A stretch of 4,705 nucleotides of DNA, taken from positions 1-4,705 of IMG/VR virus record IMGVR_UViG_2698536677_000018. One strand, 5' to 3'. Positions 1 through 4,705 of the stretch are shown piece after piece (positions within the stretch are counted from its first letter, which is position 1; every line of letters starts with the position of its first letter). The notes beneath the pieces were generated by a model. The model had not been told where the DNA came from, did no database searches, and saw nothing but the letters and a program-made list of their open reading frames with translations. The DNA comes from a virus. Lineage: Duplodnaviria; Heunggongvirae; Uroviricota; Caudoviricetes. Made by a program: the position numbers and the translations under genes.

Positions 1-46
1 TGGTATTGCTGTGGCCGGTGATAAAAAGAAACAGCCTGCATAATGC

Positions 47-73
47 TTGATTTTTTTGTTTGCTGTTTATTAA
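47..73 (+). promoter_or_regulatory. Candidate sigma70 promoter (-35 TTGATT 47-52, -10 TATTAA 68-73), possible late promoter analogous to lambda pR'
   Basis: Hexamers read directly from sequence. Spacer is only 15 nt and the -10 lacks the conserved final T, so the match is weak. Position just after an upstream stop codon and ~200 nt upstream of a strong terminator fits lambdoid late-leader layout. Confidence 0.2.
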
Positions 74-252
74 AAACACTTCTGCATGGTGAATCCCCCT
101 GTGCGGTGGGGCAATCAGCAAGAAGGAATATGGGGTAATCGCGGATTCAGGTGCTGATACTGAATTCACCGGGAGGCACCCGGCACCATGCTTTGCCACA
201 AAAGTGTTATTTCTGTTTTTCTCAAACTATCATCGTTATCCCTTTATTTTCG

Positions 253-278
253 GCTGCGCATGGCGCGGCTTTTTTTTT
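253..278 (+). terminator. Rho-independent terminator (7-bp GC-rich stem GCTGCGC/GCGCGGC, 3-nt loop, 9-T tract)
   Basis: Stem 253-259 pairs with 263-269 (one G-U pair), followed by T run 270-278. Seen directly in sequence. Confidence 0.6.
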
Positions 279-351
279 ACGACCAGCCACTGGCAGATGG
301 TCATCCTGTGATTTGATTCCGCTTCCGGCTTTTTAACTCTGTTCCTCTACA

Positions 352-357
352 CGGGAG
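352..357 (+). promoter_or_regulatory. Shine-Dalgarno sequence (GGGAGA) for the esterase gene
   Basis: GGGAGA lies 7 nt upstream of the ATG at 365. Confidence 0.6.
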
Positions 358-364
358 AAATTCG

Positions 365-2656
365 ATGTCGATTAAACATTATGATGTTGTCAGGGCGGCG
401 TCGCCGTCAGACCTTGCGGAAAAGCTGACACACAAACTGAAAGAGGGCTGGCAGCCATACGGCGGACCGGTTGCCATTACGCCGTACACACTGATGCAGG
501 CGGTGGCTATTGAAGGAGAGCCACAGGTCGGCCCTTCATCTGAGCCGGATTGGTACTACGTCATCGTACTGGCCGGGCAGTCCAATGCCATGGCTTACGG
601 TGAAGGGCTTCCGCTGCCGGATTCATACGATGCTCCGGATCCGCGCATTAAACAGCTGGCGCGCCGCAGTACAGTTACGCCGGGTGGGGCTGCCTGCAGA
701 TATAACGATATTATTCCGGCTGACCACTGTCTGCATGATGTGCAGGATATGAGTACGCTGAATCATCCGAGGGCTGACCTGAGCAAAGGGCAGTACGGCT
801 GTGTCGGCCAGGGTTTACATATTGCCAAAAAACTGCTCCCGTATATCCCGAATAACGCGGGGATCCTGCTGGTACCATGCTGTCGTGGTGGTTCGGCATT
901 TACCCAGGGCGCGGAGGGGACATTCAGCGAGTCCACGGGGGCCACAGCAGAAGGTGATGTGGTGGTCAGTGGTGCAACTGAGCCGGAGTGGTACTACGTC
1001 ATCGTACTGGCCGGGCAGTCCAATGCCATGGCTTACGGTGAAGGGCTTCCGCTGCCGGATTCATACGATGCTCCGGATCCGCGCATTAAACAGCTGGCGC
1101 GCCGCAGTACAGTGACGCCGGGCGGGGCTGCCTGCAGATATAACGATATTATTCCGGCCGACCACTGCCTGCATGATGTGCAGGATATGAGTACGCTGAA
1201 TCATCCGAAGGCAGACCTGAGCAAAGGGCAGTACGGCTGTGTCGGCCAGGGCTTACATATTGCCAAAAAACTGCTCCCGTATATCCCGAATAACGCGGGG
1301 ATCCTGCTGGTACCATGCTGTCGTGGTGGTTCGGCATTCACCCAGGGCGCGGAGGGGACATTCAGTGCGGACACGGGGGCCAGCCAGGATTCGGCACGCT
1401 GGGGTGTGGGTAAACCGTTATATCAGGACCTGATTGCGCGCACTAAAGCTGCATTACAGAAGAACCCGAAAAATGTGTTGCTGGCGGTGTGCTGGATGCA
1501 GGGAGAGTTTGACATGAGCGCCGCCACCCACGCACAGCAACCTGCGCTGTTTACAGCCATGCTGACACAGTTTCGTGCTGACCTCTCCGTGTTTAACGCG
1601 CAGTGCCATGGTGGCAGTGCTGCAGATGTGCCGTGGATTTGTGGTGACACGACGTATTACTGGAAAAATACATACGCTACCCAGTACGACACCGTGTACG
1701 GCGGGTATAAAAACAGGGAGAGTGAGGGCGTTTATTTTGTGCCCTTCATGACAGACGGTAACGGCGTCAATACCGCCACTAACGCGCCGGCAGAAGATCC
1801 GGATATTCCGGCATCAGGATATTACGGTGCGGCATCGAGAACGAATGGAAACCAGGTATCATCAAACCGCCCGACACATTTCAGTTCATGGGCGCGCAGG
1901 AGCATTATTCCGGATCGTCTGGCAACCGCTATTCTGAACGCAGCCGGGCGCACCTCAGCCTTCATCAGTGGTAAGGCACCGGAAATCAAACCCTCGCCCG
2001 GCGGCAACACGCCATCGGGTCCGTCTGCAGATACGTCCGTTCGCACAATCTCCCTGCTGCCGGCAGCCGGAGAGGCTGCTGCGCAGGGCTGGAGCATTAA
2101 GGATGGCGGAATTCAGTTGTCAGATGGTGTATTTAAGATCACCAAGCAGAGCAATAAAACCTGGTCCCTGACGCATCCGGTGGATGACGCAATTACCCTG
2201 CTGACACAGGGCGGCAGACTGACCTGTAAGTTCCGCCTGTCAGGCGCACTGACCAACAATCAGTTCGGGCTGGGGATTTATCTGTATACGGATGCTCCCG
2301 TTCCTGATGGTGTGGCGATGACGGGTACCGGTAATCCGTTCCTGATGTCGTACTTCACTCAGACCACTGACGGCAGAGTGAATCTGATGCATCACAGGAA
2401 AGCCGGAAACACGAAGCTGGGGGAGTTCGGCGATTACGGTAACGACTGGCAGACGCTGGAGCTGGTGTTCACCGCCGGCAGTGCCACGGTTACTCCGAAA
2501 CTGAATGGAGTGGCTGGCCCGGCATTCCAGGTTATAAAAGACAGTCTGACACTGGGGCTGAATGCGCTGACGCTGACGGATGTTACAAAAAATGCAGCGT
2601 ATGGCGTTGAGATAGAAAGTCTGGTGCTGGAGATAAATGCACCGGCATCATCATAA
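365..2656 (+). CDS. nanS-p: Prophage NanS-p-type sialate (9-O-acetyl-Neu5Ac) O-acetylesterase, SGNH/SASA-family, with N-terminal DUF1737-like region and an internal duplicated segment
   Basis: 763-aa uninterrupted ORF with good SD. N-terminus [21 protein letters not shown]... and the [11 protein letters not shown] motif are recalled as characteristic of the esterase ORF found upstream of the lysis genes in Stx-type prophages. The GQSN block occurs twice (around aa 71 and aa 217). Confidence 0.8.
537..944 (+). repeat. Direct repeat copy 1 inside the esterase CDS (encodes about aa 58-194, including the GQSN motif)
   Basis: Aligns base-for-base with 975-1382 at a 438-bp in-frame offset. The 391-bp core 537-927 vs 975-1365 shows 9 mismatches (~98% identity). 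Confidence 0.9.
975..1382 (+). repeat. Direct repeat copy 2 inside the esterase CDS (encodes about aa 204-340, including the second GQSN motif)
   Basis: Same alignment as copy 1. The copies are separated by a ~30-bp unique linker encoding ...[17 protein letters not shown]... Confidence 0.9.
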
Positions 2657-2741
2657 AAAGTGAGCCAGTCAAATGGAAGGTATCGTTAAACTCACCGGTA
2701 GTGTCAGTGGGTCGTCTGAGACGCCTGCATGAGTTATCAGA

Positions 2742-2771
2742 GCCATCAGTAGTTAACTGGTGGCTTTTTTA
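2742..2771 (+). terminator. Rho-independent terminator between the esterase gene and the holin gene
   Basis: Stem GCCATCAG (2742-2749) pairs with CTGGTGGC (2757-2764) with one G-U pair, loop TAGTTAA, then TTTTTT at 2765-2770. Confidence 0.6.
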
Positions 2772-2805
2772 TTGTTGTCAGCTTCCGGATAACGGGAGAC
2801 GGGGT

Positions 2806-3021
2806 ATGTACCAGATGGAAAAAATCACAACGGGTGTGTCATACACCACGTCAGCGGTGGGGACGGGATACTGGTTACTGCAGCTGCTGGACAAAGTCTC
2901 TCCGTCCCAGTGGGTGGCGATAGGTGTGCTGGGGAGTCTGCTGTTTGGCCTGCTGACGTATCTGACTAACCTGTATTTCAAAATCAGAGAGGACCGGCGT
3001 AAGGCGGCGCGGGGAGAGTAA
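2806..3021 (+). CDS. S: Class II holin (S21-type pinholin), 71 aa, with dual-start motif M1-Y-Q-M4
   Basis: Translation [71 protein letters not shown] closely matches phage 21 S as recalled (...[14 protein letters not shown]...[22 protein letters not shown]). GGAGA SD upstream. The six-frame ORF starting at 2701 would run through the terminator hairpin, so the ATG at 2806 is preferred. Confidence 0.85.
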
Positions 3022-3025
3022 AGTG

Positions 3026-3370
3026 ATGAATAAAAAATACGAACTGGTTGTTAAAGGGATAAATAATTACCCGGATAAGATTACTGTTACTGTGGCACTG
3101 GAAATTGGTGGGTATCCGTCACTGTTGTTGCCATATGTGGCGATTAGTCTTGACCGTACTGAAGGTGCCACGCTGGAGTTTTACGAAGCTGAGGCGAAAA
3201 AGCAGGCGAAGCAGTTTTTCATGGATGTTGCTGCCGGGTTATGTGAAGGGGATGGTCCGTTGCCGGAAAAGCGGCCCATCATTTTAGAGGCGCAGGATGT
3301 GTTGATAACCTACAGAGGAAAACTACCGGGAATAATTACTGGTTCTCTGAAGACTCCACCGCTGGCCTGA
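3026..3370 (+). CDS. Conserved hypothetical lysis-cassette protein, 114 aa, soluble; possibly DUF1327/YdfR-like
   Basis: ORF with strong SD (GGGGAGAG 3011-3018) that starts 5 nt after the holin stop. Its position between holin and endolysin matches the slot of ydfR in the E. coli Qin prophage as recalled. No transmembrane segment or recognisable catalytic motif. The family assignment is from memory, not a search. Confidence 0.55.
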   Translation: MNKKYELVVKGINNYPDKITVTVALEIGGYPSLLLPYVAISLDRTEGATLEFYEAEAKKQAKQFFMDVAAGLCEGDGPLPEKRPIILEAQDVLITYRGKLPGIITGSLKTPPLA

Positions 3371-3420
3371 AGACTTAACATATCCAGGGATTTGAAATCG
3401 ATAAACCCTGATAAATATCC

Positions 3421-3957
3421 ATGAACGCAAAAATCAGATACGGCCTGTCGGCTGCCGTTCTGGCGCTGATTGGTGCAGGGGCGTCTGCGCCTGAAATCCT
3501 CGACCAGTTTCTTGACGAAAAAGAAGGTAACCACACCACGGCATACCGTGATGGTGCGGGGATCTGGACCATCTGCCGCGGTACCACCCGAGTGGATGGT
3601 AAACCTGTCGTCCCGGGCATGAAGTTGTCGAAGGAAAAATGCGACCAGGTTAACGCCATTGAACGTGATAAGGCGCTGGAGTGGGGGGAGCGCAATATTA
3701 AAGTACCGCTGACCGAACCCCAGAAGGCGGGTATCGCGTCATTTTGTCCTTATAACATTGGCCCCGGTAAGTGTTTCCCGTCTACGTTTTACAGACGGAT
3801 TAATGCAGGTGATCTAAAAGGTGCCTGCGAAGCGTTCGCTGGTGGATTAAGGACGGTGGCAGAGACTGCCGTATCCGCTCAAATAATTGCTACGGTCAGG
3901 TATCCCGGCGAGACCAGGAAAGTGCACTGGCGTGCTGGGGAATTGACAGGCAAGTAG
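3421..3957 (+). CDS. R: SAR endolysin (T4-lysozyme-family, phage 21 R-like), C-terminal ~40 codons apparently frameshifted
   Basis: N-terminal Gly/Ala-rich signal-anchor-release segment YGLSAAVLALIGAGASAP. Catalytic triad spacing E-x8-D-x5-T in KEGNHTTAYRDGAGIWT matches phage 21 R (LEGVSYIPYKDIVGVWT). After ...GDLKGACEA the called frame gives FAGGLRTVAE..., unlike the family, while the overlapping frame encodes RWWIKDGGR...SRRDQESALACWG, which resembles phage 21 R (RRWTYAGGK...TRREIEREVCLWG). Confidence 0.75.
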   Translation: MNAKIRYGLSAAVLALIGAGASAPEILDQFLDEKEGNHTTAYRDGAGIWTICRGTTRVDGKPVVPGMKLSKEKCDQVNAIERDKALEWGERNIKVPLTEPQKAGIASFCPYNIGPGKCFPSTFYRRINAGDLKGACEAFAGGLRTVAETAVSAQIIATVRYPGETRKVHWRAGELTGK

Positions 3958-4041
3958 AATATTTTGCTGAAAATGACGTTGGTCAACGCGGGTGGGTAAC
4001 ACGAAATCCTGCGAACTGGCAAAAGCTAAGTGAATAAAAGT

Positions 4042-4080
4042 AAAACCTCGTTTGTTGGCCGCAAACGGGGTTTTGTGTTT
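4042..4080. terminator. Strong bidirectional rho-independent terminator hairpin (13-bp stem, 7-nt loop, T-rich tracts on both sides)
   Basis: AAAACCTCGTTTG (4042-4054) pairs with CAAACGGGGTTTT (4062-4074) with one G-U pair, followed by TTTTGTGTTT. The A-run on the 5' side gives a U-tract on the reverse strand. Confidence 0.65.
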
Positions 4081-4143
4081 CTGACCTTGAGTAAGGCAAA
4101 GGAGAACATAGGAAAGTATAAACGAATTCTGTTGAGATTGACT

Positions 4144-4290
4144 ATGAAAGACGGCCTTGAACTGAAAGCGCCTGTAACTGATGACGTCAGCAGAGCGCTG
4201 GCTTTTGCTATTAAGTGGGTGGCGGTCGGTATTGCTGTGTCTCCGATGCTGTATGGGCTGGCAAAACTGGTCATTGCGTTGAAATCGTGA
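4144..4290 (+). CDS. Hypothetical small membrane protein (48 aa, one predicted TM segment)
   Basis: First ATG in the 4030-4290 open frame lying downstream of the terminator hairpin. C-terminal hydrophobic stretch WVAVGIAVSPMLYGLAKLVIAL. No convincing SD within 5-10 nt of the ATG, so support is weak. Confidence 0.25.
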   Translation: MKDGLELKAPVTDDVSRALAFAIKWVAVGIAVSPMLYGLAKLVIALKS

Positions 4291-4302
4291 AGAGGATTAA
4301 GC

Positions 4303-4413
4303 ATGTCAGACAAGCTCATAACGCTGGCGAAGATCCTCTGTGTAATCGTCGGCATTTCATTTTCACTAATATGCTGGTTGCTATTTGCTTTTCCACTGCC
4401 TGGCGCGTCTTAA
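4303..4413 (+). CDS. Hypothetical small hydrophobic peptide (36 aa, single TM-like segment)
   Basis: ATG at 4303 preceded by GAGGA (4292-4296) at 6-nt spacing. Translation MSDKLITLAKILCVIVGISFSLICWLLFAFPLPGAS. Too short to appear in the supplied ORF track. Confidence 0.35.
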   Translation: MSDKLITLAKILCVIVGISFSLICWLLFAFPLPGAS

Positions 4414-4443
4414 CTTTGTCAGGGCTGGTGGGGTGAGGGGGAT

Positions 4444-4705
4444 ATGAACCGTGTTCTGTGTGTGGTGATTATTGTCCTGCTGGTAGCCTGTGGTGCGCTT
4501 GGTCTGGGGCTGAATCATTACCGCGATAACGCCATTACCTACAAAGCGCAACGCGATAAAAAAGCCAGTGAGCTAAAGCTGGCGAACGTGACAATTACTG
4601 ATATGCAGGTACGCCAGCGTGATGTCGCTGCACTTGATGCCAGATACTCGAGGGAATTAGCCGATGCGAGAGCTGAAAATGAAACTCTGCGTGCTGATGT
4701 TGCCG
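4444..4705 (+). CDS. Rz: Rz inner-membrane spanin (i-spanin), lambda-type, 5' partial (runs off the window end)
   Basis: Translation [87 protein letters not shown] is near-identical to lambda Rz as recalled (...[64 protein letters not shown]). N-terminal TM segment then coiled-coil region. GAGGGG SD upstream. Confidence 0.9.
4665..4705 (+). CDS. Rz1: Rz1 outer-membrane lipoprotein spanin (o-spanin), embedded in the +1 frame of Rz, 5' partial
   Basis: ATG at 4665 in a different frame from Rz encodes [13 protein letters not shown]..., matching the lambda Rz1 start MLKLKMMLCVMMLP as recalled. Only 13 codons lie in the window; the true start could instead be the Met at 4680. Confidence 0.6.

Follow-up and report, generated by a model that had tools for sequence, protein, structure and literature searches.

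The 4,705-nucleotide stretch of DNA considered here (positions 1 to 4,705 of IMG/VR record IMGVR_UViG_2698536677_000018, a virus of the Caudoviricetes) is referred to as the window, and all of the features described below lie on its plus strand. An open reading frame (ORF) at 365–2656, encoding 763 amino acids (aa; stop included), is on the evidence of its domains the gene for a NanS-p, the sialate O-acetylesterase of prophages. Esterases of this type let strains of Escherichia coli that produce Shiga toxin (STEC) use the O-acetylated sialic acids of mucin. The DUF1737, SASA/SGNH, and DUF6645 domains are all present, and the gene has the location typical of nanS-p in the late region of lambdoid prophages, where it is flanked by the Q/tRNA (or stx) region on one side and by holin S on the other. 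Within the ORF, the N-terminal half of the esterase domain occurs twice in frame, and the two copies correspond to two different natural alleles that are joined at nonhomologous positions between nucleotides 943 and 944.

The domain order of the 763-aa product is DUF1737, a linker (linker A), an orphan half of a SASA domain, a second linker (linker B), a complete SASA domain, and DUF6645. DUF1737 is found at aa 4–49 (374–511) by Pfam (PF08410, 56.3 bits against a cut-off of 24). The complete SASA/SGNH esterase domain, aa 205–525 (977–1939), is aligned to residues 16–332 of E. coli NanS (PDB 3PT5), and the match to this structure (E = 8e-121) is confined to these residues. The C-terminal lectin-like jelly-roll domain, aa 567–759 (2063–2641), is recognized both through PDB 6YP6, the C-terminal domain of a NanS-p, which aligns over the same residues (E = 1.2e-29), and through Pfam, which identifies DUF6645 (PF20350) at aa 613–723 with 65.5 bits. 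With the definitions of the SGNH blocks of 3PT5 taken from PMC10792757, the complete domain contains block I (GQSNA, aa 217), block II (RGGSAF, aa 320), block III (MQGEFD, aa 378–383), and the histidine of block V (His505, in THFS at aa 504). These elements are conserved in chromosomal NanS (YjhS), the protein of 3PT5, in which the block V sequence is xSHFS as compared with PTHFS in the window, but the chromosomal enzyme has no DUF1737, no lectin-like domain, and no repeated half-domain. The block V sequence in the window reads RPTH (aa 502–505, nucleotides ~1868–1879), a form that has been reported solely for one divergent protein, the NanS-p that Stx2a prophage 86 encodes, other NanS-p of Stx2a phages having RSSH or RASH (PMC10462455).

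Published NanS-p proteins have three domains, are active 9-O-acetyl sialic acid esterases, and are encoded by several alleles per STEC genome (PMC8065619); those of Shiga toxin (Stx) phages are 636–657 aa in length with one esterase domain (PMC10462455), and their C-terminal lectin-like domain has been described as a carbohydrate-binding module (PMC10462455, PMC8065619). The NanS-p proteins of 933W (Z1466/NanS-p) and phi24B (vb_24B_21/gp84) share with the window the three-domain plan, variants of the SGNH blocks, and the position upstream of the holin gene. The window protein differs from these in its length, 763 aa as opposed to about 616–657 aa for NanS-p with one esterase domain, the excess of 146 aa consisting of an additional linker and half of an esterase domain. 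This mismatch is a departure in architecture and does not affect the homology. The first-pass annotation had calculated that removal of the repeat would leave a protein of ~617 aa, and this agrees with the nearest single-copy relatives examined, which are 616–617 aa long.

The same annotation had described a segment of ~400 bp present twice in direct orientation at an offset of 438 bp in one ORF, and this is confirmed. Tandem Repeats Finder reports a repeat at 540–1382 with a period of 438, 1.9 copies, 96% matches, 0% indels, and a score of 1595, and a separate repeat search gives the same start-to-start spacing. In register, the copies at 540–944 and 978–1382 are identical at 392 of 405 positions (96.8%) without indels, a similarity far beyond chance, and the repeat is in frame because 438 nucleotides (nt) equal 3 × 146 codons within the single ORF. 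Of the 13 mismatched positions, 8 leave the encoded residue unaltered, and the remaining 5 account for four conservative residue changes (D/E, R/K, E/A, and S/D). Identical runs of 125, 86, and 40 bp are common to both copies.

Copy 1 (about aa 59–193) contains block I at aa 71–75, with Ser73, and block II at aa 174–179; copy 2 (aa 205–340) contains block I at aa 217–221, with Ser219, and block II at aa 320–325. The original description of the duplicated unit as the part carrying block I is therefore correct but incomplete, since block II is duplicated as well. Copy 2 runs on without interruption into the remainder of the esterase domain, whereas copy 1 lacks blocks III and V; MQGEFD (aa 378) and His505 are each present once. 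A profile search, which had been proposed as a check, finds SASA in the 763-aa protein with 62 bits split over two stretches, and copy 1 alone matches profile positions 4–97 of 226 with 19 bits, short of the 24.8 needed to pass the cut-off. From these matches and from the restriction of the 3PT5 alignment to the second copy, copy 1 is recognizable as an orphan half-domain that precedes a complete esterase and lectin-like module, as the first reading of the sequence had supposed. In predicted models, two of the five core strands are found in each unit, with a long excursion and one helix following strand 1 and preceding strand 2; in the AlphaFold2 model, copy 1 shows the same succession of secondary-structure elements as copy 2 but is predicted with lower confidence.

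A comparison of alleles divides the window into two arms. The left arm (1–943) consists of upstream DNA and nanS-p codons 1–193, including linker A, and is of allele type A; it matches 529 complete-genome records at ≥99% identity, the best of them (H211/H212) aligning as a single piece without gaps at 99.8%, and its gene part (365–943) is 99.66% identical to the gene of the single-copy relative L002. The right arm (944–4705) extends from nanS-p codon 48 of an allele of type B to the end of the gene and on through the lysis cassette. It aligns as one collinear piece, which begins exactly at 944, with the genomes of O145:H28 strains RM12761 and RM13516 at 98.6% identity overall, and in the comparison with RM12761 only five mismatches fall in the bins covering 944–2799; the segment 944–2256 is also 99.5% identical to contig L007. 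No indels separate the window from its closest relatives over 1–943 and 944–3834. The 34 nt between the copies (944–977) are not part of the repeat and differ from linker A, which precedes copy 1. They constitute linker B, the native linker between DUF1737 and SASA in alleles of type B from codon 48, and are 100% identical to positions 142–175 of the gene of L001, which encodes a 616-aa protein in which linker B is natively preceded by ...TLMQAI. The first 28 nt of this linker (944–971) are native in 618 records. The protein can thus be written as A(1–193) + B(48–617), the A part ending in ...FSESTGA.

At the novel junction (943/944), the sequence ...ACGGGGGCC is followed in frame by ACAGCAGAAGG..., and comparison with the native continuations, GGGGCC/AGTCAGG in A and GCGATT/ACAGCAG in B as against GGGGCC/ACAGCAG in the window, reveals a microhomology of one shared nucleotide (A). 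Every one of the 13 differences recurs as a polymorphism among a set of six natural alleles with a single copy, and no change is private to either copy of the repeat; the haplotype of copy 1 is nearest to L002 and L005 (2 mismatches), and that of copy 2 is nearest to L006 and L003 (3–4 mismatches). The possibility that the segment was copied from itself and then diverged was rejected on this basis. The repeat likewise does not have the form of a simple tandem duplication of one allele, as the copies represent two natural haplotypes and each arm runs on into a prophage background of its own. The term “internal duplication” used in the first-pass annotation consequently holds for the in-frame repeat, but the second copy does not come from the gene's own sequence; the ORF is a chimera of two alleles joined nonhomologously, a conclusion that is drawn because the arms match different natural alleles and the differences between the copies are standing polymorphisms. 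The apparent parents are represented by the single-copy alleles WP_049029101.1 (L002), WP_025380391.1 (RM12761), and WP_000143049.1 and WP_025404270.1 (both RM9872), which are 616–617 aa in length and 99.5–99.8% identical to the left or right arm, respectively; each has a single segment corresponding to 540–944, and none contains GGGGCC/ACAGCAG. Both parent-like alleles are present, in opposite orientations, in one complete genome, that of O145 strain RM9872 (NZ_CP028379.1), where the minus strand at 2.55 Mb carries a left arm of type A (L009; 99.68% identical to window 1–943) and the plus strand at 1.40 Mb carries a gene of type B (L010; 99.48% identical to window 944–2656). An IS3 element follows the A-type copy in this genome.

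The junction was sought elsewhere with a 54-nt probe centered on it, designed so that only a contiguous junction could seed across, and also with a 161-nt probe. Among complete E. coli genomes (5,426), phage records (50,697), and plasmids (72,556), no place was matched by the 54-nt probe across the junction, the native right half alone being matched, and the search with the 161-nt probe was likewise negative; the two-copy form is thus not the usual one in the family. Exact 34-mers and 20-mers of the junction were absent from species-representative genome, viral, and metagenome collections; a lone 20-mer match (L004) was to an unrelated high-GC contig that has no similarity to the window and was set aside as a chance match. 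The exact 763-aa protein does not occur among about 15 billion sequences, the same architecture was not found in a search with the full-length protein, and a search of 1.84 billion cluster representatives with the 135-aa unit returned no protein with two full copies among the matches listed. A search with the junction peptide was also negative, but this is weak evidence, as only 36 short candidates were gathered. The proteins that have two stretches matching the unit proved to be single domains split by the aligner, a protein with a perfect 100-aa repeat (P0056), or a distant homologue of 1108 aa (P0171). Places resembling nanS-p number up to 15–17 per genome. Full-length matches were obtained in 1,392 genomes, and in each of the best 40 of these the match spans 1,854 nt, which corresponds to a single copy. 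The 763-aa variant is therefore a singleton, and no report of an internal duplication in NanS-p was found in the literature searched. In P0171, an insertion of ~330 residues splits the N-terminal half of the SASA domain (protein positions 168 to 498), lying between unit residues ~79 and ~61–128. This has the look of a natural insertion of a domain into the corresponding half-domain, a region that from this comparison appears to be tolerant of large insertions.

Over-long NanS-p entries of another kind are present in public protein sets. P0001 (707 aa), P0002 (709 aa), P0056 (638 aa), and P0059 (730 aa) contain identical head-to-tail repeats of 85–100 aa (255–300 nt), which lie in different parts of NanS-p in P0001, P0056, and P0059. 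P0002 derives from L007 (BDHX01000150.1), the one contig inspected at the DNA level, which contains four perfect tandem repeats of 277–300 nt in 7.8 kb (2142–2694, 3057–3606, 4468–5042, and 6217–6810), two of them within nanS-p. These repeats are clearly artefacts of the assembler and the source of the 709-aa length of P0002, and artefacts probably account for most of the public entries in which NanS-p is over-long. They resemble the window in having an in-frame internal repeat that lengthens the NanS-p ORF. The repeat in the window, in contrast, has a period of 438 nt, is the only one in 4.7 kb, and consists of copies of 96.8% identity (13 differences in 405 positions) that represent two haplotypes separated by a 34-nt foreign linker.

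The structure of the locus is best explained by a real and rare nonhomologous recombination between two prophages, which we regard as the probable origin of the variant, but an artefact of assembly, scaffolding, or chimeric reads, in which paralogues of types A and B have been joined end to end, is a possibility to be taken seriously, if a less likely one. Under the latter explanation, ~405 bp of overlapping sequence would be displayed twice, and the organism would have just ordinary genes for proteins of 616–617 aa. Several observations weigh in its favor and against a real molecule. The junction and the 763-aa protein were found nowhere else in the collections searched; both parent-like alleles coexist in the complete genome of RM9872, so that a blunt contig-to-contig join is possible, and genomes hold many nanS-p-like places; draft assemblies do produce false tandem repeats in nanS-p; and two other private indels in the window (at 3835 and 4369–4370) could equally mean that the sequence is imperfect. 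In addition, the odds that a join falls in frame are 1 in 3 whatever the model. On the other hand, the frame is kept across 763 codons and the join lies at nonhomologous positions that share 1 nt. Chimeras generated by graph-based assemblers, overlap errors, and template switching in the polymerase chain reaction arise inside shared sequence. In the window, the left break is just 10 nt past allele-specific single nucleotide polymorphisms (SNPs), and the right break is within a stretch where A and B differ strongly (90.8% identity upstream of the break), so neither break appears to sit where a contig end induced by a repeat would be expected. The artefacts that have been seen in nanS-p are, moreover, perfect repeats of 255–300 nt, unlike that of the window. 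A real molecule is favored because the junction is nonhomologous and does not resemble the artefacts of nanS-p in the databases.

Two further explanations accept the sequence as real and account for it in other ways. An intragenic tandem duplication in one allele of type B, by slippage or unequal sister-strand exchange, might have been followed by gene conversion, in which other alleles replaced either the 5′ end together with copy 1 or copy 2 together with the downstream sequence. The NanS-p family is highly mosaic, and copy 1 is nearly as close to L001, an allele with linker B (3 mismatches), as to the A type (2 mismatches); but at least two additional recombination events would be required, with either conversion of a whole copy or a crossover confined to 10 nt, from the last allele-specific SNP (933) to the junction (943), whereas a single join of A and B explains all of the observations and leaves each arm continuous with its own flanks. 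The single crossover is preferred because of these additional events, and duplication with conversion is considered very unlikely. It should also be asked whether the repeat is a new architecture maintained by selection, the half-domain being functional, for example, in domain-swapped complementation on the capsid or as part of a longer spacer that projects the esterase. The DUF1737 domain of phage phi24B gp84 is a capsid-binding decoration domain that forms a hexamer on the capsid (bioRxiv 10.64898/2026.04.10.717836), which would bring the copies close together, and in the window the frame is kept and both of the Ser-containing blocks are intact. Against this, a second occurrence was found nowhere, there are no private substitutions pointing to age or adaptation, the neighboring lysozyme gene is frameshifted, which points to a decaying prophage, and near-identical direct repeats of 405 bp are expected to be unstable. 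A selected architecture is accordingly viewed as extremely improbable; there is no evidence for the spread or selection of the chimeric nanS-p.

In the favored explanation, recombination between prophages, one nonhomologous in-frame join would have linked two co-linear lambdoid prophage genomes that carried different nanS-p alleles. As the left break would lie 146 codons downstream of the right break in the gene, a linker and the first ~135 SGNH residues would have been doubled. Catalysis would be expected from the intact B module (aa 194–763, with Ser219, block III, and His505), which is equivalent to a native NanS-p minus DUF1737. Copy 1, which has no block III, no catalytic His, and none of the other three of the five core strands, would not form an active site by itself; it is probably a poorly folded or poorly ordered spacer of ~146 aa or a competitor for the C-terminal half of the fold. 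The AlphaFold2 predictions, made with an alignment of 30 sequences, are of low to moderate confidence and uninformative as to folding: the mean predicted local distance difference test score (pLDDT) is 61.9 for the full protein and 71.6 for the B part alone, and within the full protein it is about 44 in copy 1 as against about 54 in copy 2, a region that scores about 62 in the control without copy 1. Any such competition might take place within one chain or between the chains of a DUF1737 hexamer.

The identical runs of up to 125 bp are ample for RecA-dependent deletion of one copy, and recombination of this type should readily collapse the copies to a single-copy A/B allele encoding 617 aa. 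The variant is expected to be unstable and recent because the copies share these long identical runs, and a recent, rare, and neutral to slightly harmful event fits the observations, with which the frameshifted lysozyme gene in the same prophage agrees. The locus is a one-off chimeric allele of a well known and highly recombinogenic prophage gene and not a new kind of protein. It is doubtful, although conceivable, that the repeat is expressed and represents a natural partial-domain duplication caught at an early stage, with two half-folds competing for one C-terminal half; if expressed and real, it would show, in a present-day phage enzyme associated with virulence, the duplication step of protein evolution by permutation through duplication or by domain swapping. 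A real variant would mean that co-resident prophages do not recombine by homologous exchange alone and that nonhomologous joins can yield in-frame variants at the level of domains, and it would make the gene a ready construct for testing the tolerance of the SGNH fold for a redundant half-domain. Over-long NanS-p entries would in general comprise artefacts and at most rare true variants, and read support is needed before a new architecture is claimed for any of them.

The remainder of the window places nanS-p in what is, by gene content and order, the late region of a lambdoid prophage of the non-Stx type, an assignment made because annotated lambdoid prophages of many E. coli genomes (L002, L003, L005, L006, and L008 among the annotated loci) are collinear with the window over its full length. 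The upstream neighbor is the 3′ end of a gene of the DUF3927 family (1–50), for which L002 has an annotated coding sequence at 2383–2550; window positions 1–364 are 99.7% identical to L002 positions 2501–2864. Downstream of nanS-p lie genes for a class II holin of the P21 S type (2806–3021; PF04971, 112 bits) and for a member of the YdfR/DUF1327 family (3023–3370; PF07041, 150 bits), both in agreement with the annotation of L002, a phage lysozyme gene (3421–3957), and the 5′ part of a lysis gene of the Rz type (4444–4705; PF03245, 59 bits) that extends past the end of the window. The lysozyme gene is frameshifted, its match to PF00959 covering aa 33–140 only. In comparison with L002 and L008, 1 nt has been deleted after position 3834 (GAAGCG[A]TTCGC, where there is no homopolymer), which alters the frame of the last ~40 codons, and several genomes and plasmids carry an intact but otherwise identical allele (202 nt versus 201 nt in the window, 99.5%). 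The deletion suggests a lysis-defective, decaying prophage or else a sequencing error. A cluster of small indels relative to L008 is found in the intergenic segment 3974–3985, and a 2-nt insertion (TA) relative to L002 and L008 is found at 4369–4370, in an ORF for a hypothetical protein of 43 aa just upstream of Rz. Terminator-like GC-rich hairpins followed by runs of T are located on both sides of nanS-p (252–280 and 2739–2777), an arrangement that is consistent with late transcription under Q antitermination; in a hairpin scan of the window, eight terminator-like structures were counted as compared with 4.4 ± 2.0 expected.

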